A stretch of 64,000 nucleotides of DNA from an uncultured Gemmatimonadales bacterium (GTDB lineage Bacteria; Gemmatimonadota; Gemmatimonadetes; Gemmatimonadales; GWC2-71-9): assembly GCA_963730185.1 (NCBI GenBank), contig CAVSQW010000012.1:192001-256000 (forward strand). The letters are read 5' to 3'. The notes below the pieces were generated by a model that saw only the letters and a list, made by a program, of their open reading frames with translations, did not search any database and was not told the origin of the DNA. Position numbers and translations under genes: made by a program. Below are positions 2,760 through 58,430 of the stretch, one piece after another. How positions within the stretch are numbered: the first letter of the stretch is position 1; each line of letters begins with the position of its first letter.

Positions 2760-3076
2760 CAGACCGGGGTCACGACCGGCGAATCGTCGGGCAGCGCCCG
2801 GCCGGCGTCGGACGATGCCGGGGTCGCCGGGCGCGCCAGCCGCCGCTCCGCGAAGTCGAGCCGCTCCTCCACCTCGATCAGCTCGGCCCGAAGCCGCTCG
2901 ACCTCCCCGGTGAGCTCGGCGGCCCGCCCCCGGTTGATGTGCCCCTTGAGCCAGCTGATCGCGGCCCGGCCGAGGGGTGTGACCGACAGGAGCGTGATGC
3001 CGAGCGCGCCGACGATCCAGGGAATGAGCAGGTTGATCGAGTGGTTGATCCACCAGTTGATCTGATCCGGATTCAT
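2759..3076 (-). CDS. Hypothetical membrane protein with coiled coil
   Basis: TM segment followed by EVEERLDFAERRL; GGAGGAAGG upstream. Confidence 0.75.
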   Translation of the reverse strand: MNPDQINWWINHSINLLIPWIVGALGITLLSVTPLGRAAISWLKGHINRGRAAELTGEVERLRAELIEVEERLDFAERRLARPATPASSDAGRALPDDSPVVTPV

Positions 3077-3316
3077 TGCCTTCCTCCTCGTCCGGGGTCC
3101 CGGCGTCTGCTCCTCAGCGAATGTAGAAGGGTTCCGCCACGCGAGGCCCTCGCCGAAAACCGAGGTCGGGCCACGAGGTTGAAGATGGGAAGTGCGGTCG
3201 CTCGGCGCCACGCACCCAGCCGACCGGCAACCGAGAGATCCACTGGTTGGCGGCGGCTTGTATTTCGGGGTTTGTTCGGTATCTTGAGATCCCGCCCCAC
3301 CGGAGCACGATCCACG

Positions 3317-4594
3317 ATGAAGCGCCCCGCCGACCTCGAAGCCAAGGTCTCGCTCCTGATGTCGCTTGCCCAGGACGATCGCGAGGGGCTTCCGGGCGCC
3401 CGGCCGTCGCCCCCCCGGCTCCGGAACGCGAACCGGGCCGGCGTCCTCGGTCCGGCCACCATCCGCCAGGTTCGGCCGGCCGGCGGTCCGGCGACCTCAC
3501 TGCTCCGGATCTTGATGACGAACGCGTGCAGCTTCAACTGTCACTACTGCCCGATGCGGCGCGACCGGAATCTGCCTCGGACTCTCCTCAAGCCGGAGGA
3601 GCTGGTCCGGGTCTTCATCGGCGCGCTGGAGCGCGGGTGGTGCTCGGGACTCTTCATCACGACCGGGATTCCGGGCCGTCCGACCAAGGTGATGGACGAC
3701 CTGATCGCGGTCCTGGAGCTGCTCCGCGAGCGGCACCGTTTCCGGGGTTACGTCCACACCAAGATCGTGCCGGGCGGCGATGCCGCGCAGGTGGAGCGTC
3801 TGACGTCGCTGGCCTCCCGGGTGTCGGTCAACGTCGAGGCACCCTGCGGCCGGCACCTGGCCCGGATCGCCCCCGAGAAGCGCCTGGACACCACGCTCGA
3901 GACCTTCGAGCAGGCGCGGGCGCTGGTCAACCACACCCGCCGGGCGGAGCGGGCCGGCCGGCCCCGCGATCTGCTGCATCCCGGCGGCGTGGCGGGCATG
4001 ACGATGCAGTTCGTGGTGGGCGCGACGCCCGACAGCGACCGGGCCATCATGGACAAGGTCACCGAGCTCAACCGGGCGGGCGGGGTCCACCACACCCACT
4101 TCAGCGCCTTTCGGCCGATCCGCGACACACCGATGGAGCAGGTCCCGGCCACGCCGGCTCTCCGGGAGCATCGCCTCTATCAGGTGGACCACCTGGTTCG
4201 CGACTACGGCTTCGCTCCGACCGAGATCCCATACGATGCTCGCGGGAACGTGCCGCTGGCCCGCGACCCCAAGATCACCTGGGCCCTGGCCGAGCCCGAT
4301 CGGTTCCCGGTCGAGCTCAGGACGGCGGGCTACGACGAACTGGTTCGGGTGCCCGGTATCGGGCCGGGAACGGCGCGACGGATCGTGGCCGAGCGCCGAA
4401 CGACCACCATTCGGGGGCTGAACGACCTGAAACGGCTCGGGGCCAAGACCAATCGGGCCGCCGGATTCCTCACCATCGGTGGCCGGCGGCTCCAGCACGA
4501 GCGCTGGGCCGAGCAGCTCGGATTTTGGAGCCCGGAGGAGGAGGCGGGAGCCCCGCAGCTCCTCTACGAGGTGAGTCCCGGCACGTTCCGCTGA
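3317..4594 (+). CDS. Putative DNA modification/repair radical SAM protein with C-terminal helix-hairpin-helix
   Basis: LLRILMTNACSFNCHYC (CxxxCxxC); REHRLYQ; RVPGIG HhH. Confidence 0.88.
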   Translation: MKRPADLEAKVSLLMSLAQDDREGLPGARPSPPRLRNANRAGVLGPATIRQVRPAGGPATSLLRILMTNACSFNCHYCPMRRDRNLPRTLLKPEELVRVFIGALERGWCSGLFITTGIPGRPTKVMDDLIAVLELLRERHRFRGYVHTKIVPGGDAAQVERLTSLASRVSVNVEAPCGRHLARIAPEKRLDTTLETFEQARALVNHTRRAERAGRPRDLLHPGGVAGMTMQFVVGATPDSDRAIMDKVTELNRAGGVHHTHFSAFRPIRDTPMEQVPATPALREHRLYQVDHLVRDYGFAPTEIPYDARGNVPLARDPKITWALAEPDRFPVELRTAGYDELVRVPGIGPGTARRIVAERRTTTIRGLNDLKRLGAKTNRAAGFLTIGGRRLQHERWAEQLGFWSPEEEAGAPQLLYEVSPGTFR

Positions 4595-4766
4595 CGCCGG
4601 ACGGATTCCGCCGCACCGGGCAAAGGCTTAGACTGGCTCGGTCCTGTCAAGCCGACCAGCCCTTGGGAGCGCGGGTGGTCCTCGGGACGACGCGTGAGCC
4701 TCCCGGATGGTTGACTCCGAAGGCCTCCGAGCGGAGGTTGCCCAACCCCGTGACCGCCGAGCGTCA

Positions 4767-6122
4767 ATGAAGAGTTCCACAATCGGGATCGCCATCGTTG
4801 GGCTGGCCCTGGTTGGGCCGGTCTCCGTCGCCGGAGCGCAGCAGGCGTCGATGGGGGAGTTCCCGTTGCCGATGGGCGAGCCCCGTTCGACGCCGCACGC
4901 CGGTTTCATGACGTCAGCCGGCGGTTGGCAGATCCGCGTCCACGGGTTCGCCTTCCTTGGGACGACCTCGGCGACCGGGCCTCGAGGCGAGAGCCACTCC
5001 CTGACGCCGAGCATGGCATCGGTCGCAGCGATGCGGCCGCTCGGACGAGGCCGCCTCAGTCTCCGCCTCGGCGTGAGCGCCGACCCCACGATGGGGGCGA
5101 GAGGCTACCCGCTCCTGCTCCAGACCGGAGAGACGGCCGACGGTCTCACCCCGCTTCACGATCGCCAGCACCCGCACGACCTCCTGACCGAGCTGGGTCT
5201 GGCGTACCGTCAGCAGGTCGGGGATTCGCTCGACGGATTTCTCTATCTGGCGGCCGTCGGTCAGCCGGCCTTCGGTCCGGTGGCGTTCATGCATCGGGCC
5301 TCCGGCCGCGAGCTGCCCGAGGCGCCGCTCGGCCACCACCTCCAGGACGCAACCCACATCACCAACGGCGTGCTCCGCTTCGGCGTCGTGAGCCGCGGTA
5401 TCGTCACCCTCGAAGCCTCGCTTTTCAACGGGCGGGAGCCGGACCCGGACCGTTGGACGCCCGACCCGATCCGGCTCGACTCCTATTCGCTTCGGGCCCT
5501 GGTGAACCTGAAGGCGGATTGGGCCCTGCAGGCGAGTGTGGCGCACGTCGCCCAGCCGGAGCGGCTCCACCCGACCATCGACGAGACCCGGCTGTCGTTT
5601 TCGGCCACCTACAACCGCCCGCTTCGGAGCGGCAACTGGCAGACCACCTTCGCTTGGGGCCGGAACCTCACCATGCGGCGGATCATTCCGTTCACCGAGG
5701 CGCGGGCGATCTTCCCCGCCCCGGTGCTGGCGCACTACCTCGCGCTGGCCGAGCTTACGGGGCTGCCGGCCGACTCACTGGACCTGGTCTTTCCGAGCCA
5801 GCCGACCTCGGGATTGCTCCTGGAAAGCGCACTCGAGACGGGTCCGGCGATCGTGACGGCTCGGGCCGAGTATCTGGGCAAGCGAGAGATCTTCGACCCG
5901 ACCGACCTTCGGCACAGCGAGCTCTTCCACGTCGGCAAGGTCTCGGCGGGGGCGATGTGGCAGGTGGAGCTCAGTTCGCAGCTGTCGCTCGGCGTGGGAG
6001 CCGAGGGGAGCCTTCATGTCGTCCCAACGTCGATCCAGCCGGACTATGGGACGATGCCGCTATCGGGGCAGCTCTTTGCCCGGCTCCGGATTCGGACTCG
6101 GATGCAGGGAGACGGCCACTGA
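4767..6122 (+). CDS. Secreted/outer-membrane hypothetical protein (DRQHPHD family)
   Basis: Signal peptide; GYPLLLQTGET, DRQHPHDL, APLGHHLQDATHI, FNGREPD motifs. Confidence 0.8.
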   Translation: MKSSTIGIAIVGLALVGPVSVAGAQQASMGEFPLPMGEPRSTPHAGFMTSAGGWQIRVHGFAFLGTTSATGPRGESHSLTPSMASVAAMRPLGRGRLSLRLGVSADPTMGARGYPLLLQTGETADGLTPLHDRQHPHDLLTELGLAYRQQVGDSLDGFLYLAAVGQPAFGPVAFMHRASGRELPEAPLGHHLQDATHITNGVLRFGVVSRGIVTLEASLFNGREPDPDRWTPDPIRLDSYSLRALVNLKADWALQASVAHVAQPERLHPTIDETRLSFSATYNRPLRSGNWQTTFAWGRNLTMRRIIPFTEARAIFPAPVLAHYLALAELTGLPADSLDLVFPSQPTSGLLLESALETGPAIVTARAEYLGKREIFDPTDLRHSELFHVGKVSAGAMWQVELSSQLSLGVGAEGSLHVVPTSIQPDYGTMPLSGQLFARLRIRTRMQGDGH

Positions 6123-6146
6123 ACCGGCGCGGAAACGGATGTGGCG

Positions 6147-7412
6147 TCAGCGCCGATCGACCACCACCCTCCCGCCCTTCATGACCCACCGGACCCCGCC
6201 GATCACGACGTCGATGTCGGCCGTCGGATCGCCGTCCACCGCCACGATGTCGGCATAATAGCCGGGCGCCACCCGGCCGAGGTCGCTCTCGTGGCCGAGG
6301 AGCGCGGCACCGACCGTGGTCGCGGAGGCGAGCGCCTGGACCGGCGTCATCCCGGCCTTCACGAACCACTCCAGCTCGCGGGTGTTCTCGCCGAAACCGG
6401 TGAAGACGGCATCCGAGCCCATCGCGATCTTGACGCCGGCCCGGAACGCCTTCTGGAGGGTGACGAAGTTGCGCTGGACGTAGTCCTGGAGCCGGTCGAC
6501 CACGGCCTGGCTGTACCCATACTCGTCGCGGTGGGCGACGTAATAGCGGTTGTGGTCGACGGTGGGCACGTAGACCGTGCCTCGCCGGACCATCTCGGCG
6601 ATGGTGGCGTCGTCCAGGTCGGTGGCGTGCTCGACCGACTCGGCCCCCGCCCGGACCGCGTCGCGGGCGCCGTCCGGCCCGTAGGAATGGATGGCGATCC
6701 GCTTCCCGGCCCGGTGGGCCACGTCCGCGGCCGCCTTCATCTCCTCATACGAGAAGGTCTGAAAGCCGGAGACGTCCTGATCGCTCCCGGTGGAGCCGTA
6801 CATCTTGACCCAGTCGGCGCCGGCCCCGATCTGCTCCCGCGCCACCCGCATGACCTCGGCCACGCCATCGGCCCGGCCGGGATCGGGCCGGGTCACGCCC
6901 GGCGGCGGTGCGGCCCGGCTGATGTGGAGACCGTAGCCCGCGACGAACATCCGCGGCCCGGGAATGGCGCCCCGCTCGATCAGCGCCTTGAGCGCCAGGT
7001 CGGTGTACTGCCACGACCCGAGGTCGCGCACCGTGGTGACGCCGGTTTCGAGGGTCGTCCGGGCGTTCTCCTGAGCCAGGAACACCGTGACCGGCGCGCC
7101 GAGGCTGCCGAGCTGGCTCCAGGGACGGGTGCCCGGGGTCCGGTCCCAGTAATACGACATGTGGGTGTGGACGTCGATCATTCCCGGGATGCCGGTGTAA
7201 CGGCGGAGATCGATCACCGTTGCGCCGGGCGGCACCGCGCCGTCGCCCGAGCCCACCGTGGCGATTCGCTCGCCGTCCACGACCACCACGGCGTCGGCCG
7301 TGACCGCCCCGGTACCATCCACCAGGCGACCGAACCGGATCGCGGTGACCTGGGCGGCGACCGGCGGCGCCGTCAGAACGGCCAGCGCGACCGCGAGCGC
7401 TCGGCGGGTCAT
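6147..7412 (-). CDS. Secreted metal-dependent amidohydrolase (prolidase-like)
   Basis: Signal peptide; PGMIDVHTH, GVTTVRDLG, GADWVK, VEHA, GSDA, G..APG..AD; ATGA overlap with the upstream gene. Confidence 0.9.
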   Translation of the reverse strand: MTRRALAVALAVLTAPPVAAQVTAIRFGRLVDGTGAVTADAVVVVDGERIATVGSGDGAVPPGATVIDLRRYTGIPGMIDVHTHMSYYWDRTPGTRPWSQLGSLGAPVTVFLAQENARTTLETGVTTVRDLGSWQYTDLALKALIERGAIPGPRMFVAGYGLHISRAAPPPGVTRPDPGRADGVAEVMRVAREQIGAGADWVKMYGSTGSDQDVSGFQTFSYEEMKAAADVAHRAGKRIAIHSYGPDGARDAVRAGAESVEHATDLDDATIAEMVRRGTVYVPTVDHNRYYVAHRDEYGYSQAVVDRLQDYVQRNFVTLQKAFRAGVKIAMGSDAVFTGFGENTRELEWFVKAGMTPVQALASATTVGAALLGHESDLGRVAPGYYADIVAVDGDPTADIDVVIGGVRWVMKGGRVVVDRR

Positions 7413-8863
7413 GACATCCAGTTGGTGCCCGCCTCGCGGGCCCACTTGATGGTGGTCTTCCGGCTTCGGGTCCAGAACTCGATCGAGCCCCGGCCGGTCA
7501 CGTCGCCCACGCCGAACTTGGACTCGTTCCACCCGCCGAACGAGAAGGGCTCCCGGGGCACCGGGACGCCCACGTTGACGCCCACCATCCCGGCGTGGAC
7601 CCGGGACGCCACGTAGCGCGCGACCCCGCCCCGCTCGGTGTAGACCGACGCGGCGTTGCCGTAAGGCGAGCGATTCTCGACCTCGATCGCGCGGTCGACG
7701 TCGGGCACCCGGACGATCGCCAAGACCGGTCCGAACACCTCGTCCTGCGCGATCCGCATGTCGGGGCTGACGTGATCGACGATCGTGGGACCGACGTAGT
7801 AGCCCTGCTCCCGGCCGGGCACGTGAGCCTTCCGCCCGTCGAGGATGACCGTGGCGCCGGCCGCTTCGGCTTCGTCGATGTAGCCGATGATCCGGTCGCG
7901 CGCCTCGGCCGAGATGACCGGTCCGAGGGTCTGGCCGGGAACGAGGGCCTTGGCGATCTCCACCATCCGGGCGACGATCGGATCGACGTCGTCGACCGCG
8001 ACCATCACCGACGCCGCCATGCAGCGCTGGCCGGCGCAGCCCGCCATCGACGCCACGATGTTGCCGGCCGCCATTTCCCGGTCGGCGTCGGGCAGCACGA
8101 TCAGATGGTTCTTGGCTCCACCTAACGCCAGACAACGCTTCAGGTTCTGGGTTGCCCGGCGGTAGACCACCTTGGCCGTCCGGGTCGAGCCGACGAAGCT
8201 GATCGCCTCGATCCCGGGATGGTCGCAGATGGCCTCGACCGCTTCGCGGCCGCCGTGGACCACGTTGAACACCCCCTTCGGGAGCCCCGCCTCCTCCAGG
8301 AGCTCGCCGATCCGGACGGCCGAGAGCGGCACCAGCTCCGAGGGCTTGAGGACCATCGCGTTGCCTAACGCGATGGCGTTCGGAATGGTCCAGTGGGGCA
8401 CCATGTTCGGGAAGTTGAACGGGGTGATCGACGCCACCACCCCGAGTGCCAGGCGGTCGATCCGGCAGTCCACGCCCCGGCTCACCTCGAGGATCTCGCC
8501 CGGCGCCGTCTGCGGCAGGGCGCAGGCGAATTCGACCACCTCGATCGCCTTCTCCACTTCCGCCCGGGCCTCGGACTCGATCTTTCCGTTCTCCTCCGTC
8601 ACCAACGCGGCGAGCTCGGGGAGATGGCGCTCGAGCAGCGTCTTGTAGCGGTAGAAGACCTGGACCCGCTCCTTGATCGGGAGCGCGGACCAGTCGGGGA
8701 ACGCCGCCTTGGCCACCTGCACGGCCCGGTCGACCTCGGCGGAGCCGCCGAGGGGCACTTGGGAGATGACCTCGCCGACTCCGGGATCGAAGACGTCGAG
8801 GACGGCGGCCCCGCCGGAAATCGGCTGGCCCCCGATATAGTGCGAAACGGCAGGATATCTCAT
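7409..8863 (-). CDS. mmsA: CoA-acylating methylmalonate-semialdehyde dehydrogenase
   Basis: ITPFNFP, SFVGST, LGGAKNH, AGQRCMA, EVFGPV, GMVGVNVGVPVP. Confidence 0.9.
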   Translation of the reverse strand: MRYPAVSHYIGGQPISGGAAVLDVFDPGVGEVISQVPLGGSAEVDRAVQVAKAAFPDWSALPIKERVQVFYRYKTLLERHLPELAALVTEENGKIESEARAEVEKAIEVVEFACALPQTAPGEILEVSRGVDCRIDRLALGVVASITPFNFPNMVPHWTIPNAIALGNAMVLKPSELVPLSAVRIGELLEEAGLPKGVFNVVHGGREAVEAICDHPGIEAISFVGSTRTAKVVYRRATQNLKRCLALGGAKNHLIVLPDADREMAAGNIVASMAGCAGQRCMAASVMVAVDDVDPIVARMVEIAKALVPGQTLGPVISAEARDRIIGYIDEAEAAGATVILDGRKAHVPGREQGYYVGPTIVDHVSPDMRIAQDEVFGPVLAIVRVPDVDRAIEVENRSPYGNAASVYTERGGVARYVASRVHAGMVGVNVGVPVPREPFSFGGWNESKFGVGDVTGRGSIEFWTRSRKTTIKWAREAGTNWMS

Positions 8864-8977
8864 TGGCGTCGGGGTAGTTGGCTCCTCAAAGTGCACTGCC
8901 GACCCGGGCGGGCGCCAGCCGGGCCCGGCCGGCTCGCGCCAACCTCGCCGATCGGCAGTAGCTTCTCTCCCAGAGCC

Positions 8978-9613
8978 CTACCGCTCGCGCCGCCGCCCGG
9001 CCGGGCGGGGTCGGGCGCCGCGCCCGGCGCGCGGGACCAGGGTCGTCATCGCCGCGAGCACCTCGTCGAACGAGGGCATGGCGCCGACCACCGGCGTCAT
9101 GGTGGCCACCTCGAATCCGGGGCCGGGATCGAGGACGTGACGGCCGTCCGCCCTGAGCCGGGCGACGTTCCGGCACACGGCCGGCTGGGCCCACATGGCA
9201 GGATTCATCGCGGGCACGAAGAGCACCGGGCACGAGGCCGCCAGGATGGCGGCCGTCGGTCCGTCGTCGGCCAGGCCGTGCGCCGCGCGAGCCAGCAAGT
9301 TGGCGGTGGCGGGAAGCGCCACCACCAGATCGGCCCCGGCGACCGCTTCGACATGAGGCACCAGGAGATCGGCGGGCGCGTCGAAGAGGTCGAGCACCGG
9401 CTCGAGCCCGGTGACGACCCGGACGGCGTACGGCGTGACGAACCGGCGGGCGGCGGCCGAGAGGAAGACCCGCACGGTCGGCGCGAAGGTACGCCGCACC
9501 AGGAAGAGAAAAGCCGGCAACATGACGGCCGCGACGGCGCCCGACGCCGCCACGACCACCGACTCGCAGACCTTCGCCTCGGGAAGCGGATCGGGCGGGG
9601 ACTTTCTGGGCAT
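8978..9613 (-). CDS. Stand-alone HFCD flavoprotein, LanD/EpiD-like peptidyl-cysteine decarboxylase
   Basis: ASGAVAA, PHV (catalytic His position), PATANLLA, PAMNPAMW; no CoaB domain; no LACG Cys motif of CoaC. Confidence 0.8.
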   Translation of the reverse strand: MPRKSPPDPLPEAKVCESVVVAASGAVAAVMLPAFLFLVRRTFAPTVRVFLSAAARRFVTPYAVRVVTGLEPVLDLFDAPADLLVPHVEAVAGADLVVALPATANLLARAAHGLADDGPTAAILAASCPVLFVPAMNPAMWAQPAVCRNVARLRADGRHVLDPGPGFEVATMTPVVGAMPSFDEVLAAMTTLVPRAGRGARPRPAGRRRER

Positions 9614-9665
9614 GGGCGGCTCGGAGCGGAGTGAGCCCCAATCTAACGATCGAGCGAGGTGAGCG

Positions 9666-11088
9666 ATGCTGGGAATCCCGTACCCGACCCGCCGGCTCAG
9701 GGCCCGTCACCACCACCAGCTGCTCGTCCGGTTCCGCGACGAGGCGATCGAGAGCGCCGGCAGTCGCATTCTCGCGCGCGAGCATCCCGGCCTGGCGCTC
9801 TTGCACCAGCACGATCGGGCGGGAAGGCTCCGGCGCTTCGTCTCACTGCATCCCCGGGTGCAGTGCGATCTCTCGGCCGATCGCGGCGCCCGGGTGACCG
9901 GCGGGTTCCAAGCCGCGGCGCGCTTCCACCGCCGCGAGGACCTGCTGGGTCACCACGCCCGGGCCTTCCTGGTGGAAGTCGAGTCGAGGACCGCAGACGC
10001 CGTGAGCGACCTCCGGCGAGCCCTGGCGGCCGACCCGAACGTGGAGCACGTGGAGATCGCTCCGATGCGATATCTCTGGGCGGCGCCACCGACGCGCGCG
10101 CCGGACGGGCTTCCCCCGACCCGCCATTGGAACCTGGACCGGATCCACTTCTGGGCCGCCGTCAACCGGAAGGGCTTCAAGAACGCGGACGGGATTCCGG
10201 TGGCGGTGCTCGACTCGGGCGTCCAGACCGACCACCCGGCGCTTCGTCATTCCGTCCACCGCTACATCGTCTCGCGGCACGCCGCGCCGGGACTGGGGCG
10301 CCACGACCTGATCGGCCACGGGACCCACGTGTCGGGCATCATCGCGGCCCGCCGGCGCCGCGCCATGGACCCCCGGGGAATCTGCCAGTGCGACCTCCGG
10401 GTCTGGAAGATCTTCGACGACGAGCCGAGCTACGACGACCAGATCAAGGTCTTCTATTACACCGTGGACATGGCGCTCTACCTCCAGGCGATGGTGGACT
10501 GCCTCCTTCAGCGGGTGAAGGTGATCAACCTGAGCCTCGGTGGACCGGCCAAGCCGGGGCGAAAGAGCCAGGAGCGGATCCTGTACGACGACCTCATCGC
10601 CCAGGGAGCCACCCTGGTGGCCGCGATGGGCAACGCGCGGGCGGCGGGGAGCCCGCCGTCGTATCCGGCCGCGCTGCCGGGGGTGGTGGCGGTCGGGGCC
10701 GTGGGCCTCGACGATCGGGTGGCGCCCTTCTCGAGCCGGGGGCGGCACATCGCGCTCGCGGCGCCGGGGGTCTCGATCTGGTCGACCTTGCCCAACTACG
10801 CCGGGCAAATCGGCTTCCACCCCCGGCGCGGGGTCCGGGGCACCCCCGGGTCGGGGCGGCGATGCCCAGGAACACCGGGGGAGACGCCTGGCCCGGCACG
10901 TCGATGGCGACCCGCACGTGACCGCCGCCGCCGCGCTGCTCCTGGCCAATCGAGGCACCATGAGCGGTTCCGACGTTCGCCAGGCCTTGATGAAGAGCGC
11001 GGGACCGCTGGCCGGCATGAAGCGGAGCCGCTGGACCCCCGATCACGGCGCCGGCATGCTCGATCTCGCCAAGCTGCTCGCCCCCTGA
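9666..11088 (+). CDS. S8 subtilisin-like peptidase, no signal peptide; two frameshifts near the 3' end
   Basis: VAVLDSG, GHGTHVSG, AAMGN in frame 9666; GTSMAT in a second frame (about 10893-10912); PHVTAAAALL...GAGMLD* in a third frame ending 11088. Confidence 0.85.
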
Positions 11089-11122
11089 CTCCAATCCCGC
11101 CGCATCGACCCGGAGTGATCCC

Positions 11123-12623
11123 TTGAGCGCTCCCCAGAAGCCAACCGTCCCGGTCCCGCAGGGCATGCTGTCCGATCTCGATCCGCTCGCGACCCCCGGC
11201 CCGAAGAAGACGGTGGTGGTGCTCGGGGCGGGGCTGGCCGGGCTCTCCGCCGCCTACCAGCTGGTGCGAGCCGGCCACCAGGTCACCGTCGTCGAGGCGC
11301 GCGACCGGGTGGGAGGGCGGATCGAGACCATCCGGACGCCGTTCACGGACGGCCAGTACGCGGAAGCGGGCGCCCTGTTCCTTCCGGCGCACCATCCGCT
11401 CACGATGGGATATGCCCAGCAGTTCAAGCTGCCGCTGGTCACGATCTCAACCTCCAAGGATCCCTGCCTCTGGTACGTGAACGGAGCCCGGATCGCGAAC
11501 CCGACCGACCCCGCCGCGGCCTGGCCGTTCCCGCTCTGGCCCGAGGAACAGAGGGGCGGAATCATCGGGATGATGACCCAGTACGTGCTCGGGCCGGTCG
11601 GGTCGGTCGGCGATCCGCGAGCCGCCGGATGGCCGCCGGCGACCGTGGCCCAGTACGACACCATGTCGCTCTGGGAGCTGCTCCGCTCCCGCGGGGCGTC
11701 ACCGGGCGCGATCAGCATCGTCCGCCGGGGTTACCTCGACCTCTCGGGCGACGGCATCGAAGCCTGCTCGGCGCTGGCCATCCTCCGCGACCTGGCCTCG
11801 CAGAGTGGCGGGATGCCGCCCCACCACCGGATCAAGCCGCCCCCCAACCCGGACGCCGACGATCCCTTGCTCGAGCACAGCATCACCGGCGGGAACGACG
11901 CCTTGCCTCGCGCCTTCGCGGCCCAGCCCGAGCTGGCGGGCAAGATCACCTTGAGCACACCGATCGCCCGGCTCGAAGCCGGCGCCGGCGGCCGGGTGGC
12001 CTGCGTGGCCGCCGACGGCCGGCGGTTCGAGGGCGATCAGGTGATCTGCACCATTCCCTTCTCGGTCCTTCGCACCCTGGACCTGGCCGTGCCCCTCTCC
12101 GACGCCAAGCGCCGGGCGATCGCCCGGCTGGAGCACACGTCCGTAACCCGCACCTTCCTGCAGTGTTCGCGTCGGCTCTGGCGGGAGCGGCAGATGCCGT
12201 GGGTGGCGAACACCGACCTCGACGTGATGTGGCTCAACGAACCGACCGCCGATCAGACCGGCACCCCCGGGATCCTCGAGTCGTTTGCGGCCGGGCCGGC
12301 CGCCCGCCGGTTCGCCGCGATGGCCGAGGCCGACCGGCACCAAGCGGTGGCGGAGGAGATGGATCAGCGTCTATCCCGGGGTCAAGGCGCTGATGCAATG
12401 CGGCGCCTCGAAGTGCTGGGACCAGGATCCCTGGGCCCGAGGCGATTACTGCTGGTTCCTGCCCGGCGACATGCGGGCCCTGGGACCGACCTTGCCGGCG
12501 GCGGAAGGAAACGTGCACTTCGCCGGGGACCACACGTCGGTGATGCCGGGATGGATTCAGGGCGCGTTCGAGAGCGGACACCGGGCGGCGCAGGAGGTCA
12601 ACGCCGCCCCGGCCGGGTCGTGA
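11123..12623 (+). CDS. Flavin monoamine oxidase / L-amino-acid oxidase family protein; one frameshift near 12368
   Basis: GAGLAGL...EARDRVGGR, AEAGA, GGND.LP; C-terminal WDQDPWARG and FAGDHTS..PGWIQGAFESG in a shifted frame; GGAG before TTG. Confidence 0.85.
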
Positions 12624-12630
12624 CGGCGGG

Positions 12631-14016
12631 TCAGTCGGCCGGAGTTCCCAGGAGGAACTCGCCCACCGGCGACTCCGCTTCGTAGCGGGTTCCGATGGCC
12701 TCGAGCAGGAGATCGGCCGGGCCCGAGCCGAGGGCGCAGGGCGCCAGGTTCATGGCGGTGGCGACGAGGTACATGGTCTGGAGCAGCACCCCGACGTCCT
12801 TGAGGACCACCGCGTAGGTGATGCCTTCGTATTTCCAGGACACCCGGCGAAAGCGAGCGGTCAGGACCAGCAGCACCTGGTGTTCGTGGGTCCCGTACTC
12901 GCCCACGTTCACGTGGGCGAGTAGCCGGCGGACCAGCGACGGGTGGCCCAGCGACTCGAGCCCGTGCCGGCCCGGGTCGTAGTGGTAGATCCCCCGAGCC
13001 AGCCCGCGGCACCGGTTCACGGCAAGGTAGATCTCCAGCTCGTAGCAGGCGCCGCCGCCGGGATAGGGCCGGCGGCTGGCCGGATAGAGGAGCTCCTTGC
13101 CGTCGGCGGGGATCGCGGTGTCGAGCCGGGCCGCGCGATGGAGGAACTCGCCTAGCATGTCGCGATCGATCGCGCGACGGGCGTGGCGGCGCCGACTCCG
13201 TCGCGCCTCGAGGACCTCGGTGAAGGAACGGTCGCGACGGCGAAGTCGGGCCAGGTCGGCTCGGGGCAGCGCGATGAAGGCGCCGGCCGCCGGTGGACGG
13301 GTGACTGGCGCGGGCGCCACGTCGCGGAAGGGATAGGTGGCGCCGGTCGGACCGTCGCGGCGGCCGGGCCGGCTCCGGGCGTGAAAGAGGAGATCCACCG
13401 GGCTCCACCCTACCAGATCGGGATCGAGCGCCTCGGCCGCCCTTCCTTCCGGGCACCGGCTCACCAGCTCGGCCGCGGCCAGCAGCTGGACCAGCTCGCC
13501 CGCGACGCGAACGCTCACGCCGGCCGCCGCCGCCAGCTCGGCGACGGTGCCGGGCCGGCTCAGATGCGACACCAGCGCCATGCCCGCCGGCGTGGGCAGC
13601 TCCACTCGAAGGCCGGAGCGCGGGGTCTCGAGCGACCAGCCATCGTCGCGCCGGGTCAGGACGGCGAAGCGGGAGAGCACCATCGGGCCGTCGAGCGGCG
13701 GAGCCGGCGCCACCGGCGCGCCGGCCATCGGGGTGAGCCGAGCCAGCACCCGACGCCGGTGCCGGAGACTGACCACGACGGCGCCGGCCCGGCGGAGCCG
13801 ATGCAGGAAGTGGATCCAGGCCGCCAGCGCGATCGGATCATCGGCGGCTCGCGCCGCCGCCAGCTCGGCCTCGGAGCCGCCGACCGCCAGAACGCGCAAC
13901 GCGCGCCGGACCCCCTGGTCCGGCGCGCGCCACGTGACCGTACGACGGCCCGATCGGACTGCGACGGCCCGCGGCGTCTCGATCGCTCGAGTGCCGGAGG
14001 CCAGTGTGAAGATCAG
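12631..14016 (-). CDS. SagB/ThcOx-family FMN-dependent azoline dehydrogenase with N-terminal extension (start codon uncertain)
   Basis: RRSRR, RRPYPGGGACYELE, GIYHYDP, SWKYE (KY motif), YLVATAMNLAPCALG. Confidence 0.9.
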   Translation of the reverse strand: MIFTLASGTRAIETPRAVAVRSGRRTVTWRAPDQGVRRALRVLAVGGSEAELAAARAADDPIALAAWIHFLHRLRRAGAVVVSLRHRRRVLARLTPMAGAPVAPAPPLDGPMVLSRFAVLTRRDDGWSLETPRSGLRVELPTPAGMALVSHLSRPGTVAELAAAAGVSVRVAGELVQLLAAAELVSRCPEGRAAEALDPDLVGWSPVDLLFHARSRPGRRDGPTGATYPFRDVAPAPVTRPPAAGAFIALPRADLARLRRRDRSFTEVLEARRSRRRHARRAIDRDMLGEFLHRAARLDTAIPADGKELLYPASRRPYPGGGACYELEIYLAVNRCRGLARGIYHYDPGRHGLESLGHPSLVRRLLAHVNVGEYGTHEHQVLLVLTARFRRVSWKYEGITYAVVLKDVGVLLQTMYLVATAMNLAPCALGSGPADLLLEAIGTRYEAESPVGEFLLGTPAD

Positions 14017-14378
14017 CAGACGAGTGTCGCGGTGAACTGCGCCGCGAGCTTTCGGTGGCTCCCCTTGTTCGACTCGCGAATCCCGCGGGGCTTGGGCGGC
14101 ACCACCAGATGGTAGTGGCCCTTCCCTTCCTCGTGAATGTGCACCTTGGCGCCGGGCGGCAAGGTGATGCCTTCCTCCTTGAGCACCTTCTTGGGGTTGG
14201 CCTTGACCCGCTTCCGGTATTCCGGATCGCCCCACATCCCGGCGATGAACCGAGCGTAGCGCTTCTGGTCGCGCGGGGAGCTCTTCTTCGCCTTCTTCGC
14301 GGTCGACCGCTTGGCCGAGGCCTTTCTGGCCGGCCGCTTCGCGGTCTTCTTTGCCGACTTTCTAGTCGTCTTTTTCAT
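14013..14378 (-). CDS. NHLP-leader RiPP precursor peptide, 121 aa, Lys/Arg-rich N-terminus, C-terminal Cys
   Basis: AGGAG 7 nt upstream; FIAGMWGDPEYRKRVKANPKKVLKEEGITLPPGAKVHIHEE...HLVVPPKP fits the nitrile-hydratase-like leader pattern; lies between YcaO and SagB genes. Confidence 0.85.
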   Translation of the reverse strand: MKKTTRKSAKKTAKRPARKASAKRSTAKKAKKSSPRDQKRYARFIAGMWGDPEYRKRVKANPKKVLKEEGITLPPGAKVHIHEEGKGHYHLVVPPKPRGIRESNKGSHRKLAAQFTATLVC

Positions 14379-14439
14379 CCGCCCGCTCCTTGCTGTATGA
14401 GTTGAAGAGCTACGGCATGCGACGGGACCGACGCCGGGG

Positions 14440-14468
14440 GATATAGGCGCATTGCGGATGCGGCGCAA
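14440..14468 (-). promoter_or_regulatory. Possible sigma70 promoter for the precursor
   Basis: TTGCGC-N17-TATATC in the YcaO-precursor spacer; the -10 is imperfect. Confidence 0.3.
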
Positions 14469-14470
14469 GC

Positions 14471-16681
14471 TCAGACGAAGAGCGGCACCGGGTTGAGTAA
14501 CCGCTCCGCGCTCCGTCGACGCCGGTGGCCGAGCCGCACCGGCACGTCGTAGAGACGGCCGGCGCCGAACCGGGCCCAGAAGTGACGGAGCCCCGGTACG
14601 ATCGCCTTGACGACGGGGACCCCGATGTCGGGACGGGTCTGATCGAGGACCAACAGATCGAGTCCGAGCCGCTCGAGCCGCGCCCGACAGGTGCTCAGGT
14701 CGGCCGCGACGCCGCCGCGTGCCAGCGCCAACGAAGTCGGCAACCCAACCCGCCGACCCGGGCGAGGCGAGAGGTGGGGATGCTCGCGAAGGACGGCGTG
14801 CCGGAGCCAACGACCGACCGCGCTCCGCGCCGCTCCAGGCTCGCGGTCCAACTCGAGCGCGGCGGCCAGGAGCTGCCCCATCTCGGCGAGGCTCCGGCGG
14901 AGGGCGACCGCCGGGTCGAGATGGGCGCCCATCCCGAACACGATCCGATCGGCGCCTCGCCCGTTCTCACCCGACAGCGCGACGTAGGTCGGAACGCCAA
15001 CGTCGCTGGTGGCGTCCAGCACCCAGATCCGGCGACCCAGGGTCCGGTACGCGGCGATGAGCCCTCGCACCCAGGGATCGTCGATCCGACCGAGATCCAC
15101 GCCCGGCAGCCGAAGTCGGTTGTACCACCAGATTGCCACGCCATCGCGCTCGATCAGCTCGAGCAGCCCCGCCAGCACCGCGTCTTCGAAAGTCTCGCCA
15201 GCGGCACAGCCGTTGGAGTCAGCCCAGCCGAAGCCGTCGGGCGCGGCCTCCGGATGGCCGAAATAGAGGAGCGCCGTCGGCAGGTAGCGAGGAGCCCGGC
15301 GGGTAAGCGACCAGACCGGGGTCCAGTCGAGGACCGACTCGGGGTCGAACGGCGTGGGCACCCGCGCGGTCGGACCCACGCGCGCGTTCCATCGGCGGCG
15401 GCCGCGATACTGCGCCGGGCTGAAGAGGAGACACTCGTTGGGATGGATGGCGCGATCGCCCAGGGCGCGGAACGTGCTTCGGATCCGGGGCTCGTCGCCT
15501 TGGAACACGCCCGAGTAGCGCTCGATCGCCTCGGCCATGGCGCTGGCCCGCGCTTCCGCGTCGGTGGTTCCCTTCCCGCCGCACTGCATTCGGAGATCGA
15601 CCGACCGCCAGCCGGTTCCGCCCCAGACCCGGGCGCTGTTGGCGCCGGCGGCGTAGGCGTGGACGCCCAACCCGGCCCCGACCTCGAGCGGCGCAAGGTC
15701 CCGGATCACGCCGGTCACGTCATCGACCAGCGCGTCGTGCCGGGCCACGAACACCTCCGGCGGGTCCCGGCGCCGGCCGGTGCCCCAGGACCGGAGCCGC
15801 GGCGCGATGCGAGCGGCGCTCAGGGGGGGCGCGACCCCGACCCGTTCGGCGTAGAGGCCGGCGTCGCCGCAGGCCGGGCATTGCGGCCGGCGGTCCACCC
15901 GATGGCGGCGCACGGACGCGTCGACGAGATCGAAGGTCAGCAGGTGGCGGCTCAGCAGCCCGCCGTCGCCCGTGGCCCACCGCTCGAGCTGCACCGCGAA
16001 GAGACCGATCGCCGCCCGAAGCGAGGCGCCGGTCCACCCGCGGGGCACCGGCCGGTCGCCGGCCTCGATTCGCTCGTCGTCGCGATTGCGGCGCACCCGA
16101 TGGGCCAGGCATTCCCAACAGGCCGTCTCTCCGGGACGAAAGACCGGTCCGAGCCAGGCCACCGTGCCCGTGGCCGCCAGCGGAACCCAGGAGCGCCCGG
16201 TCGTGAGCGCCCGGCGATTATGGGCCGCGAGGCGATCGTCCAGGTAGTCGTCCACGGCCACCAGGTCGAGCGCCGTGGCCCGCTGCCCGACCCGGATCCC
16301 GGCGGCCGCCAGCGCCTTCCGGTACCGGGCTCGTCCAGCCCGGGACCAGAACCGAAGGGTAACCCGGCACGGCACCGCCGCCGCCGACCCGGCGGCGTCG
16401 CGGAACACCTCGGCGGGGCCGACCATCCGTCCCTCCCGGAGATAGCCTCCCGCCTCGAGCCGGATCAGGGCGTAGTACACCTCGGCCGGATCGAAGCGGT
16501 CGGCCAGGCGGTCCACGATCCGGTCGACGGAGCGCCGACCGTCGAGCAGGGGGACCAGGGCGGCGTGGACCGCGCCGTGCCAGACCGCGCTCTCACGCTC
16601 CGACCTGAGCACGACCCGGTCGGGCGCGACCACCCGGGCCCGGAAGCGCGGGGCGAGCCGGGGATGCCGAACCGCCGTCAC
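14471..16681 (-). CDS. Fused TOMM leader-binding/C-protein + YcaO cyclodehydratase
   Basis: N-terminal RRE-like region, GPVFRPGETACWECL and PQCPACG; GKG, EAIERYS, SNGCAAG, ELIERD; C-terminal NPVPLFV (PxP). Confidence 0.93.
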   Translation of the reverse strand: MTAVRHPRLAPRFRARVVAPDRVVLRSERESAVWHGAVHAALVPLLDGRRSVDRIVDRLADRFDPAEVYYALIRLEAGGYLREGRMVGPAEVFRDAAGSAAAVPCRVTLRFWSRAGRARYRKALAAAGIRVGQRATALDLVAVDDYLDDRLAAHNRRALTTGRSWVPLAATGTVAWLGPVFRPGETACWECLAHRVRRNRDDERIEAGDRPVPRGWTGASLRAAIGLFAVQLERWATGDGGLLSRHLLTFDLVDASVRRHRVDRRPQCPACGDAGLYAERVGVAPPLSAARIAPRLRSWGTGRRRDPPEVFVARHDALVDDVTGVIRDLAPLEVGAGLGVHAYAAGANSARVWGGTGWRSVDLRMQCGGKGTTDAEARASAMAEAIERYSGVFQGDEPRIRSTFRALGDRAIHPNECLLFSPAQYRGRRRWNARVGPTARVPTPFDPESVLDWTPVWSLTRRAPRYLPTALLYFGHPEAAPDGFGWADSNGCAAGETFEDAVLAGLLELIERDGVAIWWYNRLRLPGVDLGRIDDPWVRGLIAAYRTLGRRIWVLDATSDVGVPTYVALSGENGRGADRIVFGMGAHLDPAVALRRSLAEMGQLLAAALELDREPGAARSAVGRWLRHAVLREHPHLSPRPGRRVGLPTSLALARGGVAADLSTCRARLERLGLDLLVLDQTRPDIGVPVVKAIVPGLRHFWARFGAGRLYDVPVRLGHRRRRSAERLLNPVPLFV

Positions 16682-19317
16682 CTCGCGACGCTGGTCTGGA
16701 ACGGCACGTCGAGCCGGGGGTCGTCGCGGATGGCGGCGAACGCCGGGTGGGCTCGGAACCAGGCTGGCGAGAGGGTGGAGGGGACGCTCGGCACCGCCCT
16801 GATCTGGTCGATCGCGCCGGCCCGATCGCCGAGGATCAGATCGATCTCGGCCTGCTGGACGACCCAGGCCACCCCCTGGACCGCATCGCGCGCGACCGGC
16901 TGGATCGTCATCGCCGCCTGGCCTTCCTCCATGGCCCGGGCTGAGTCGCCCTCCACGGCGTACACCAGGCCGAGGTCGGCGTGATAGGCCGGCGATCCCT
17001 GATAGACATCGTGACGGGGAAGCAGCACCGCGCGCGACGAATCGAAGTACGGCCGGGCCCGGTCGGGCTGCCCCTTCCAGCGATAGTACTCGCCCTTCGC
17101 CAGGTAGAAGGCCGCGGAGTCTACCGGCAGATGGGCCAGCGAGAGACGCTCGAAGGCACCACCCAACTGCCGGTCCAGGAAGGCCAGGTGCCAGCGAAGT
17201 CGCGGGATCAGGGCCACGAACAGCGCGGTGGTGTCCGAGTGCGCCACCGCCTCGTGCATCGCTTCGTGCGCCTTGGCGGTGTCGCCATCCCGGGCCATGG
17301 CCAGGTGCGACAGCGAGTGGTAGGCCGCCACGAAGCCCGGCGCCAGGCTCGCGGCCCGCCGGTACGACTCCTCCGCCGCGTCGTACTGGCGGAGCATCTG
17401 TTCGGTCGCGCCGACTTCCATGGCGTAAGCGGGCGAGAGCGGATCGAGCTGGGCCGCCCGCTTGGCATAGTCGAGCGACTGCTCCACCTGGCCGCGCCGG
17501 CGGACCACCGAGCCCATCAGCCAGAGCAGCTCGCTGTTGTTCGGCTGGGCCGACTTCGCCTCCGAGAACTCCACCAGGGCCCGGGCCAAGTCGCCCTGCA
17601 CCCAGTAGTAGAGATAGCCGCGGGCCAATCGCGCCTCGGCGGCGGTGGAATCGAGCGCCAAGGCATGATCCACCGCCTGGCTCGCCAGCCGCTGCCGCTC
17701 CGGCGAGCGGTCGAAGAGGTAGAAGTACATCGACTGGAGCTCGCCCAGCTTGGCGAACGCGTCGAGAAAGGTCGGATCCAGGGTCGTGGCCCGGGAGAAC
17801 TCCGCGATCGCCTGGCGCATCGGGCCTTCGGCGTAGCGCTGGTTGTCGAGCGCCTCGCCCCGGAGGAAGGCCTCGTAGGCGGACATGTCGTGGGTGAGCG
17901 CCGTCTGCCGGGTGGCCCGCTCGGAGCCGACCAGGCGGACGTTGAGCTGGGCGGCCACCTGCTCCGCGATCGAGGCCTGCACTTTGAAGATCTCGCCCGG
18001 GGCGAGCGCCACGGTGTAGCTCTGGGTCCAGAGATCGTGGCCGTCGCTCACCTGGACCAGGTGAGGCACGACCCGGACCTCGCCGGAGCCGTCCGGGTGC
18101 CGCTCGGTCTGGACCGATCCGGTCAGCACGTACCCGACCCCGAGCTCCTGTCCGACCTCCCGAAGGGAGCGATCGCGGCCGGCAAAGTGGGCGGCGCTGG
18201 CCCGGGAGATGGTGCCGAGCCCGTTGATGCTCCCGATCCGGCTGGTGATCTCGTCGGTGAGCCCGTCGGCGAAGTGCTGGTCGTCCGGCGTGCCCAGGTT
18301 CTCGAGCGGCAGGACCGCGATCATCGGCGTGGCCTCGACCGCGGGCCGGGCGGGGCGAAGCAGGATGTAGCCGGCTCCGCCCCCCAGCACCACCAGGGCC
18401 CCCGCGGCGAGGAGCCAGCGGCGTCCCAAGCTCCGGCCGGCCGCCGGCGGGGCCGCGACCTCGACCGTGACCGGCCCGGCGGACGCCCGGGCCAGGGCGT
18501 CGGCGAACTCGAGCGCCGACTCGTAGCGGTCGGCCGGCACCTTGGCCATCGCCTTCTCGAGCACGCCCTGCACGGCCGTCGGGATCGCGCTCCGCACGGT
18601 GCGGACGCTCGGCACCGGATCCAGCGAGTGCCGGGCCAGCACGGCCATCGCCGACGGACCGCGAAACGGCGGCTCGCCGACCAGCATCTCGTAGGTCACG
18701 CAGCCCAGGCTGTAGACGTCGCTTCGGGCGTCGATCTGATCGACGCTGCTGGCCTGCTCCGGACTCATGTACTCGGGCGTGCCGATCGCCACGCCGGTTT
18801 GCGTCATCCGGTCGCCGCCGGCGGCCGAGACCGCCTTGGCGATCCCGAAGTCGGTGACGACCGCGGTCCCGCCGCTCAGGAGGATGTTCTCCGGCTTGAT
18901 GTCGCGATGGATCAGACCCTGGCCGTGCGCGTGGCTCAGCGCCAAGGCCACCTCGCGAGTGATCCGGCTGGTCTCGTCGAGCGTCAACGGACCGGTCCGG
19001 GCCAGCCGTTCGCGCAGGGTCTCGCCTTCGACGAACGGCATCACGTAGTAGAGGAGCCCTTGGGACTCGCCCGACTCGAAGAGCGGGACGATGTGCGGGT
19101 GCTGGAGTCCGGCGGCGATGCTGATCTCCCGGGCGAACCGGTCGGGCCCAAGCGCCGCCGCCAGCTCGGGCCGGAGCACCTTGACCGCCACCCGTCGGCC
19201 GAGGCGGACGTCCTCGGCGAGGTAGACGGTCGCCATCCCGCCGCGGCCGAGCTCGCGCTCGACCCGGTAGCGCCCGCTCAGGGCCTCGGTGACGCGGGTC
19301 TGGGCGTCGGACGACAT
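16678..19317 (-). CDS. Hanks-type Ser/Thr protein kinase with TM segment, TolB-N-like and TPR regions
   Basis: LGRGGMATV, VAVK, HRDIKPEN, DFG, GTPEYMSPEQ; IAVLPLENL. Confidence 0.93.
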   Translation of the reverse strand: MSSDAQTRVTEALSGRYRVERELGRGGMATVYLAEDVRLGRRVAVKVLRPELAAALGPDRFAREISIAAGLQHPHIVPLFESGESQGLLYYVMPFVEGETLRERLARTGPLTLDETSRITREVALALSHAHGQGLIHRDIKPENILLSGGTAVVTDFGIAKAVSAAGGDRMTQTGVAIGTPEYMSPEQASSVDQIDARSDVYSLGCVTYEMLVGEPPFRGPSAMAVLARHSLDPVPSVRTVRSAIPTAVQGVLEKAMAKVPADRYESALEFADALARASAGPVTVEVAAPPAAGRSLGRRWLLAAGALVVLGGGAGYILLRPARPAVEATPMIAVLPLENLGTPDDQHFADGLTDEITSRIGSINGLGTISRASAAHFAGRDRSLREVGQELGVGYVLTGSVQTERHPDGSGEVRVVPHLVQVSDGHDLWTQSYTVALAPGEIFKVQASIAEQVAAQLNVRLVGSERATRQTALTHDMSAYEAFLRGEALDNQRYAEGPMRQAIAEFSRATTLDPTFLDAFAKLGELQSMYFYLFDRSPERQRLASQAVDHALALDSTAAEARLARGYLYYWVQGDLARALVEFSEAKSAQPNNSELLWLMGSVVRRRGQVEQSLDYAKRAAQLDPLSPAYAMEVGATEQMLRQYDAAEESYRRAASLAPGFVAAYHSLSHLAMARDGDTAKAHEAMHEAVAHSDTTALFVALIPRLRWHLAFLDRQLGGAFERLSLAHLPVDSAAFYLAKGEYYRWKGQPDRARPYFDSSRAVLLPRHDVYQGSPAYHADLGLVYAVEGDSARAMEEGQAAMTIQPVARDAVQGVAWVVQQAEIDLILGDRAGAIDQIRAVPSVPSTLSPAWFRAHPAFAAIRDDPRLDVPFQTSVAR

Positions 19318-22491: not shown

Positions 22492-22691
22492 GAGCGCTGG
22501 CCTCGCAAGTGAAGCTCCAGCCATGGATTGACGAGCTGGGATGTGATAGGCGCGCCGGGCGCGCGGAGGGAATATACCGGATGGTCGCGTGGGGCATGGG
22601 CCGCTTCGCCGGCGGGCTCCCCGACTCTGGCCGGAGGGGTCGGCTGAGCCAGCCTGCGACGCCGGCTAGTCGCCCCGCATCCAGGCCGAAT

Positions 22692-23400
22692 ATGCCCAGG
22701 CGCGCCCCCGTCGTTGCCGCGACCCTCGCCCTCCTCGTGCTGGCCGCCCGGCCGCCGGCCTCGGCCGCCCAGGCCATTGGGGAGCGCCGACTCGCCCACC
22801 CGGACGCGGTCTTCCCCGAGCCCTTCTCCCTCATTCGGGGTCTGCGCGAACTGTCCGACGGCCGGGTCCTGGTCGCGGACTGGATCGACGAGCGGGTCGC
22901 CGTCGTCGATTTCGCCCGGGGCACCGCCACCACCATCGGGCGGACCGGCCGGGGTCCGGCGGAATACCGGCTGCCGTCGAGGCTGATCGCCCTTCCCGCC
23001 GACACCACGCTCCTGATCGACGAAGGCAACCAGCGTCTGACGCTGATCGGTCCTGATCTCAAGATCGGCGCTGCGCTCGGGCGTCCCCAGGACGCCTGGT
23101 CGGTGGCCCCGGACGGCGCCCTGCTGCTGCTCCGCTCGCTCGACTACCACCTGGAGCGAAAGGGCCCCGGCGGATCGCGATCGGGCCAATCGAACCCCTA
23201 CCCGACTCGGGCGGTCTCCGACGCCGACAAGACTTGGTTCGTCCGTCGCTTTCTCGCCACCAGTGCAATGAGCGGCCGGGGAGGCGACGGCGGCATGGGA
23301 CACACGCCGAGCGAGTTGCAGACCGCGGAAGCCGTGGCGCGAATCGTCCGGACCAACGAGTTCGCGCCAGAACTCGCTCGAGCGTTATCGGCTCTGAAAC
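22692..23400 (+). pseudogene. Degraded 6-bladed beta-propeller gene (3' end approximate)
   Basis: Signal peptide, RELSDGRVLVAD, GRTGRGPAEY; jumps to QDAWSVAPDG and loses protein-like character after FAPE. Confidence 0.5.
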
Positions 23401-23460
23401 CGCCCCACCCAGGCGATCGTCGGGTGAGGAACACCGCTCTCTCGCCGACGACGAGTCCCA

Positions 23461-56093: not shown

Positions 56094-56182
56094 CACATTA
56101 GCCCGGGAGGCCTGTAGCAGTAGCGGTTTAGACTGCACGGGAGGCTCGACAACGATGCGTCCGACCGCATCCGGGCAGAACG

Positions 56183-56236
56183 GTCTTCTTCGTCGAGACC
56201 CCGGTCTTCACGGCGGAGATCCGTGCCCTGCTGCCG
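56183..56236 (+). pseudogene. N-terminal remnant of a RelE/HigB-type toxin
   Basis: VFFVETPVFTAEIRALLP resembles the HigB2-like start F-I/V-E-T-P-x-F. Confidence 0.5.
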
Positions 56237-58421: not shown

Positions 58422-58430
58422 GAGATGCCA

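Follow-up and report, generated by a model that had tools for sequence, protein, structure and literature searches.

Introduction

Several described families of peptides made on the ribosome and modified after translation (RiPPs) combine a nitrile hydratase leader peptide (NHLP) with a LynD-type YcaO cyclodehydratase bearing a RiPP recognition element (RRE) and with an FMN azoline oxidase. As far as the accessible portions of the reports describe them, these include the azole proteusins (MprC/MprD/MprE; PMC12455567), nostatin A (NstC/D/E; PMC11583998) and the NHLP family of thiazole/oxazole-modified microcins (PMC4603692); the accessible text of the last report gives NHLP families without PatA/G-like proteases, and its main text nowhere uses the term decarboxylase. 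A separate chemistry is that of the cysteine decarboxylases that contain flavin and form homo-oligomers (HFCDs), which, according to the accessible parts of PMC11350588 and PMC8549060, oxidise the free thiol of a C-terminal cysteine, whereupon CO2 leaves and an enethiol remains. Here we describe a locus in which both sets of genes are found together. It lies in the window, by which we mean the whole stretch of 64,000 nucleotides analysed, on contig C12 of a 17-contig, 82%-complete assembly of an uncultured Gemmatimonadales bacterium.

The locus encodes an NHLP-type precursor ending in cysteine, a YcaO protein, a SagB-type dehydrogenase, an S8 protease, an amine oxidase and a stand-alone HFCD. 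We propose, with a probability of about 0.5, that within this NHLP azole RiPP cluster the HFCD decarboxylates the terminal cysteine and the YcaO protein closes the resulting enethiol to a thiazole. An earlier note on this DNA had already read the genes as an azole RiPP cluster with an NHLP leader, in which a LanD-like decarboxylase would act on the terminal cysteine; family scans confirmed its six gene identities, and the co-occurrence of HFCD genes and terminal cysteines reported below supports its view of the decarboxylase.

HFCD genes co-occur with precursors ending in cysteine

The window YcaO protein was searched for in overlapping samples of the phylum, order and families, which gave matches in 33/401, 21/401, 12/401, 11/381, 1/27 and 7/61 genomes. 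Fifty-six wide regions were compared; ten matches were left out because they fell in two families in which all the members fetched had the same layout. The window locus is a member of a YcaO/NHLP family that recurs within its phylum.

All six loci with an HFCD gene encode precursors ending in cysteine (7/7 peptides), whereas the same is true of 3 of the 41 HFCD-less loci, or of 3/29 when the ABC-transporter type is excluded. Ten regions with no assignable precursor were dropped from this tally, three of the 41 precursors are lysine-rich open reading frames (ORFs) assigned by position, and, because several regions end 1–3 kb downstream, an HFCD gene could have been missed. Fisher's test gave a p value of 8e-6, or 0.004 with the HFCD loci counted as three lineages, relatedness inflating both results. 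The five HFCD loci other than the window (L045, L052, L055, L060 and L070, hereafter the sister loci) contain six precursors, all ending in cysteine, and their HFCD gene converges on the precursor gene. Among the nine loci with both an S8 protease and an amine oxidase, the window is alone in having a terminal cysteine and alone in having an HFCD. Set against the earlier note's expectation that homologous loci would carry the flavoprotein and the cysteine, most have neither, but none has the flavoprotein without the cysteine. HFCD loci occupy three places on the YcaO tree and the window HFCD stands apart from the clade of the five sister proteins (see below), which suggests that the HFCD was recruited at least twice.

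A scan of the genome collection with an HFCD alignment returned mostly CoaBC, and YcaO and NHLP genes accompanied the match in one of 80 loci (L114), which stands outside the tallies. When ten whole genomes of HFCD-less loci were searched for HFCDs, six gave single matches in CoaBC-sized frames and four gave blanks, which indicates that either the search or the assemblies missed genes.

The window HFCD as a candidate LanD-like decarboxylase

The window HFCD retains His87 and the PxMNxxMW motif and carries neither a CoaB domain nor an RRE. Its best sequence matches among solved structures are SpaF (7cfu) and TvaF (6jls), followed by CoaBC, and by fold SpaF comes first and CoaBC second; its model has a predicted local distance difference test score (pLDDT) of 89.6. 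A quick tree built on 35 rows separated it from CoaC at a support of 99 and grouped it (SH-aLRT 99) with the sister HFCDs and the HFCD of L094, outside the five-member sister clade. These features make it a candidate LanD-like cysteine decarboxylase. The L094 region (2163-7713) is an actinomycete class I lanthipeptide locus that encodes LanB, LanC, the HFCD and a precursor ending in …NAAYC.

Sister loci lack SagB

No SagB gene was found in any of the five sister loci within the stretch fetched. In L055 (…DDFAIC), L060 (…GRLIC) and L070 (…EDFAVC), the terminal cysteine is the sole Ser, Thr or Cys after the leader fold, and is therefore the only evident YcaO substrate. The sister HFCDs have about 290 aa (L055: 9237-10112) and possess an extra N-terminal domain of 90 residues, common to about 48 database clusters, which was modelled as strands and three helices (pLDDT 84-94). 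The nearest Atlas clusters include PF21084 (14% of members, score 0.87), the family of the RRE in the window YcaO protein, and MftB (0.83). As a lead only, the models and these neighbours point to a putative RRE-like domain with PqqD-like strands and a three-helix bundle.

In L264 (8889-10661), L265 (8969-10750), L266 and L267, which have no YcaO gene, the two-domain HFCDs are longer, at about 500 aa, and similar proteins in the database carry methyltransferase Pfam domains. In two of these cases the gene directly follows a small ORF that is rich in Cys and lipoprotein-like; these loci may represent another modification system. In the sister locus L055, a gene for a C25 (gingipain-type, PF01364) peptidase is divergent from YcaO (5160-6638), with a homologous gene in L070 (5112-6560), and the C25-domain protein is a candidate leader protease in these two SagB-less loci.

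The precursor and its putative modifying enzymes

The window precursor starts with a tail rich in Lys and Arg (19/40 residues), continues with the NHLP domain and ends in …AAQFTATLVC, with the terminal cysteine as the single one in the whole protein. Its TIGR03793 score (42.6 bits) falls under the cut-off of 50.9, as does that of the L045 precursor (47.2), while the L055 precursor passes (73.1). An AAGGAG sequence precedes the gene. The core is predicted to be FTATLVC, beginning after a Gln that is also found directly before the core in several precursor homologues. No GG or AG cleavage site precedes the window core, no transporter is encoded among the neighbouring ORFs, and a homologue search with the precursor matched only itself (1/174 candidates). 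The terminal Cys codon and the stop codon were unchanged in both public sequencing runs covering them, and five of the six strain differences in the gene were synonymous. In a sample of 1055 long ORFs of the window genome, only 3 have a C-terminal Cys.

The YcaO protein contains PF21084 at residues 10-82, scores 273 bits with TIGR03604 (cut-off 219) and exceeds the cut-off of TIGR03882. Its best matches are LynD (E 2e-153), TruD and MusD, LynD matching far better than MJ1094, and it keeps the ATP-site motifs and a C-terminal PxP, ending in NPVPLFV. By these sequence features, it is a fused RRE/C/D azoline-forming cyclodehydratase of the LynD/TruD type. The SagB protein reaches 148 bits with TIGR03605 (cut-off 78); its start codon is uncertain, the probable one being a CTG that overlaps the stop codon of the precursor gene, and homologues align from this point.

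The S8 protease has its Asp in an AVLDSG motif, its His in GHGTHV and its Ser in GTSMAT (at 10895), occupies the same position in seven related loci, with a fragment in an eighth, and is not of the PatA/PatG type (TIGR03895, 21 bits vs 421); it is a candidate leader protease. The amine oxidase has L-amino acid oxidases as its best PDB matches, and a convergent amine oxidase gene is found in 15 of the 56 related regions. A gene for a Ser/Thr kinase with tetratricopeptide repeats (TPR), absent from the earlier note's gene list, is conserved in related loci, and its stop codon overlaps the YcaO start. Kinases directly upstream of related YcaO genes group with the window kinase in 22 of 23 cases, at a weak tree support of 0.56, and the kinase gave about 48 tblastn matches in the same genome. 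A role as a regulator or receptor seems most likely for the kinase-TPR protein, though this assignment is tentative.

Proposed route to a C-terminal thiazole

The HFCD would oxidatively remove the carboxyl group of the precursor's C-terminal cysteine to leave an enethiol, which the YcaO protein would then close onto the preceding amide to give an aromatic des-carboxy thiazole (-64 Da) with no dehydrogenase. Decarboxylation is placed first because EpiD, in the accessible text of PMC8549060, is inactive on S-alkylated peptides. The L-V-C ending fits the EpiD tripeptide rule, as do five of the seven peptides of HFCD loci in all. A precedent for YcaO action at this end is the daptide enzyme, described in the accessible text as cyclising the C-terminal residue after decarboxylation (PMC12670281). 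Since the ring formed from an enethiol would become aromatic on loss of water, such a step would explain both the SagB-less sister loci and the presence there of cysteine as the sole cyclisable residue. The SagB-less loci thus point to thiazole closure, and not to the decarboxylated C-terminus that the earlier note took as the end product, although the decarboxylation itself is retained here.

In the window locus, the YcaO and SagB proteins would convert the two core threonines into methyloxazoles (MeOx), and the S8 protease would free Phe-MeOx-Ala-MeOx-Leu-Val-thiazole by cleaving on the C-terminal side of Gln. The amine oxidase might turn the freed N-terminal amine into a ketone. We consider it probable that the HFCD acts on the window precursor and, given that action, rather likely, if less so, that the YcaO protein closes the thiazole. 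A broader reading is put forward tentatively, at somewhat less than even odds: C-terminal des-carboxy thiazoles may be made by two enzymes, the HFCD and the YcaO protein, with the enethiol serving as the YcaO nucleophile; in the sister loci, this route may be cut down to a YcaO protein and a leader-guided, RRE-fused HFCD that modify cores of 3-5 residues; and the window may graft it onto the S8/amine-oxidase pathway, giving a keto-oxazole N-terminus.

If this reading is correct, a terminal thiazole would need no dehydrogenase, follower peptide or P450, and the enethiol made by LanD-like enzymes would have a new fate, providing a ribosomal route to thiazole caps. The predicted cap is akin to those of marine peptide toxins. 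It would likewise be a new reaction for both enzyme families and a simple tool for C-terminal modification. The minimal sister loci, those with three genes and one cyclisable residue, make the proposal testable by a single co-expression.

Alternative explanations

Several findings weigh against the proposed route. Identity between the window HFCD and the sister HFCDs is no more than 33-37%; the window protein has no RRE-like extension, and its gene forms a transcription unit of its own, 4.4 kb away from the precursor gene. The full six-gene architecture was found in no other genome examined, three HFCD-less loci also have precursors ending in cysteine, and two peptide ends, AIC and AVC, break the EpiD rule. 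As the window contains SagB, a thiazole could arise there by the usual route. In L078, whose HFCD is another member of the 'RiPP-like' clade, neither YcaO nor NHLP was matched and no precursor was recognised. In the 79 metagenome YcaO loci, many of them short, neither an HFCD nor the S8-oxidase layout was found, so the HFCD and YcaO pairing is rare. As for the sister N-terminal domain, an hhalign profile comparison with the YcaO RRE gave a probability of 0.3%, a PDB profile search returned no RRE, and a YcaO gene was nearby in 0/5 distant two-domain HFCD homologues from another phylum.

An unlikely alternative to thiazole closure is that the HFCD decarboxylates the cysteine but the YcaO protein does not act on the product, so that the enethiol persists or forms an aminovinylmethylcysteine (AviMeCys) ring across T-L-V-C after phosphorylation of Thr by the kinase. 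The coupling of the kinase gene to YcaO and the xLVC ending, which resembles that of cypemycin, would suit this possibility. So would the closest structural relatives, the thioamitide enzymes SpaF and TvaF, and the RiPP HFCDs covered in the accessible parts of PMC11350588 and PMC8549060, all of which make aminovinylcysteine (AviCys) or AviMeCys. However, thioamitide dehydration, as described in the accessible text of PMC8153245, requires a HopA1-type lyase and a phosphotransferase pair, and no lanthipeptide dehydratase (LanB/M/KC), Lin enzyme, cyclase or HopA1-type lyase exceeded its cut-off among the ten proteins scanned (7409-19317), the rest of the genome lying outside that search. Moreover, three sister cores have no Ser or Thr to dehydrate, and the kinase comes from a large paralogous family also represented in HFCD-less loci. 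Less probable still is that the window HFCD is a bystander or a displaced CoaC in an ordinary S8-oxidase-SagB azole locus whose cysteine end arose by chance. Its divergent transcription unit, its lack of an RRE and the cysteine ends of 3/41 HFCD-less precursors speak for this, together with its best NCBIfam score, which is CoaBC, under the cut-off. No DFP domain was found in the HFCD gene or in the window assembly, nor was coaBC found in that assembly, and the genome's second PF02441 match, tried as CoaBC, was rejected as UbiX-like. On the other hand, gmk and rpoZ, neighbours of coaBC in relatives, were likewise not found in this incomplete assembly; taken with the missing CoaB domain, this points to an assembly gap. 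Of 21 further genomes from the genus, 18 have a coaBC match over the cut-off, all five genomes with a sister locus have a separate full coaBC, and the tree separates the window HFCD from CoaC. That it has lost the LACG motif speaks only weakly against CoaC, because the Cys of LACG is also gone from the CoaBC of this lineage.

Thiazole formation on a released peptide would also be replaced if the modified NHLP protein served in signalling or as a scaffold, with the co-inherited kinase-TPR protein as the receptor that reads its tail, a possibility we judge improbable. The lack of an ABC or C39 transporter and of a double-Gly site in this subtype, the very short cores, the conserved kinase-TPR gene overlapping the YcaO start and the precursors of L072, L248 and L249, which have little beyond a Lys-rich tail, would all be in keeping with it; yet an S8 protease in eight loci, or a C25-type one in L055 and L070, suggests core release, and the cores are hypervariable and RiPP-like. 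Very improbable, in our estimate, is the reverse order of the two steps, with the YcaO protein making a thiazoline-carboxylate that the HFCD then decarboxylates as the bottromycin P450 does. According to the accessible text of PMC11350588, the des-carboxy thiazoles of bottromycin, barbamide and lyngbyapeptin do arise in that order, and the end product would have equal mass, but the HFCD mechanism begins from a free thiol (PMC11350588 and PMC8549060, in their accessible parts), and, as of the accessible text of PMC12670281, a YcaO protein was known to act directly on a C-terminal residue only once that residue had been decarboxylated.

The wider locus family

One clade of the YcaO tree contains AG-LCCC(W/G) cores beside long transporter-like genes, so named from sequence. 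A second layout, which includes the window, runs kinase-YcaO-NHLP-SagB, with an optional convergent amine oxidase gene and an S8 gene ahead of the oxidase. The cores of relatives with S8 and oxidase (…GPQFTIPL, …QPQITIPF) resemble the AAQFTATLVC end of the window precursor. The window is a mosaic that joins this S8-oxidase-SagB subtype with the HFCD and cysteine trait of the five SagB-less loci. Between SagB and the oxidase, L065 (6564-8621) and L066 (10059-12077) encode a TIGR03975 B12 radical SAM methyltransferase. With its optional oxidase, S8, radical SAM and HFCD genes, the family would be a source of uncharacterised chemistry in a mostly uncultured phylum.

Other arrangements were observed beside these. 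In L072 (noted at 8647-8808), L248, L249, L065, L066 and L068, the YcaO protein matches only the catalytic half of the window protein and has no RRE/C part, and the leaders are basic; three of these loci contain a histone-H1-like precursor of Lys/Ala repeats with tails …AAFTIA, …ASFTMA and …SKTFA and no NHLP match. Upstream of YcaO in L038, L039, L041-L043 and L050, which are AG-LCCCW loci, an NHLP domain is fused to an enzyme-like domain of 350 residues (about 430 aa in total), and L050 also has a tryptophan halogenase. In L046, L047, L048 and L251, a full or partial YcaO gene was found and no precursor was found in the region; in three of them a response-regulator-like gene follows.

Locus layout and assembly quality

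The features of the locus are listed in Table 1. The S8 and amine oxidase genes converge tail to tail on SagB, and the HFCD gene is divergent from S8 with 52 bp between them; this arrangement implies three transcription units on both strands. An organisation as six co-oriented genes was thus rejected from the strand data. The earlier note's description of six tightly packed genes holds as regards the intergenic gaps (7-92 bp) but not for a single unit.

Table 1. Coordinates of the genes of the locus, in positions of the window.
Feature	Position	Strand	Family matches
Kinase-TPR gene, 879 aa	16678..19317	minus	PF00069 + TPR
Fused RRE/C/D YcaO cyclodehydratase, 736 aa	14471..16681	minus	PF21084, PF02624, TIGR03604, TIGR03882
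NHLP-type precursor, 121 aa	14013..14378	minus	PF02979 over cut-off
SagB/ThcOx-type FMN azoline dehydrogenase, ~460 aa	about 12631..14016	minus	PF22767, PF00881, TIGR03605
FAD amine oxidase	11123..12623	plus	PF01593 in both pieces
S8 subtilase	9666..11088	plus	PF00082
Stand-alone HFCD flavoprotein, 211 aa	8978..9613	minus	PF02441

In the assembly, the S8 reading frame contains two frameshifts, which throw the catalytic GTSMAT out of frame, and the amine oxidase frame contains one, near 12360. In contigs of close strains (about 95-97% alike), the frames stay open owing to single-base differences at 10842, 10910 and 12368, seen in two, three and two of four public runs, respectively, at depths of 2-5. 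The frameshifts are therefore probably assembly errors. The same contigs disfavour S8 and oxidase pseudogenes, with less certainty for this exact strain. Elsewhere in the window, the G+C content drops to 0.56-0.58 at 56000-59000, compared with about 0.70 outside, possibly marking an acquired island, and an ORF at 22509-23834 has a gene-like start and then drifts out of sense, which may reflect another assembly indel.

Comparison with known systems

In the accessible text of PMC4603692, PMC10849128, PMC13083261 and PMC10885120, no cluster combining NHLP, YcaO and HFCD was found, and the literature consulted, mostly open full texts excluding supplements, describes no azoline-forming YcaO protein with an HFCD. 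The earlier note's statement that this combination matches no characterised class stands to that extent. HFCD clusters have reportedly been mined in a lipoavitide study. The set of NHLP, YcaO and oxidase is, however, already known from MprC/MprD and nostatin, and for this reason the locus is a variant of the NHLP azole RiPPs, not a new class. Compared with the azole proteusins, it has no double-Gly site, no C39 transporter and a very short core, and adds the S8 protease, the amine oxidase, the HFCD and the coupled kinase.

The thioamitides (TvaF, SpaF and TsaF), as far as described in the accessible text of PMC8153245, share with the window a YcaO and an HFCD gene in one cluster and a precursor ending in Cys. 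Their YcaO protein is a TfuA-dependent thioamide synthetase and their enethiol forms AviCys or AviMeCys with a dehydrated residue, whereas the window YcaO protein is predicted to form azolines, and neither TfuA nor a dehydratase pair was found among the genes scanned. In the daptides, DapY acts in a pathway that, in the accessible text of PMC12670281, starts from Thr, uses an NAD-dependent dehydrogenase as decarboxylase and needs three further steps to reach an imidazoline; in the window, the residue is Cys, the decarboxylase would be an HFCD, and two steps are predicted to give a thiazole. The end group predicted here is the same as in bottromycin (BotCYP) and in barbamide and lyngbyapeptin (LynB7), which, in the accessible text of PMC11350588, obtain it through a P450 or a diiron enzyme whose substrate is a thiazoline-carboxylate formed beforehand, once the follower has been removed or a nonribosomal peptide synthetase has released the peptide. 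Finally, the LanD/LinD enzymes EpiD, MrsD and CypD, as presented in the accessible text of PMC8549060, have the same HFCD fold, active-site His and hydrophobic-X-Cys substrate end as seen here; EpiD is leader-independent and feeds AviCys rings, whereas the sister HFCDs carry a putative RRE-like domain, and lanthionine machinery is absent here.

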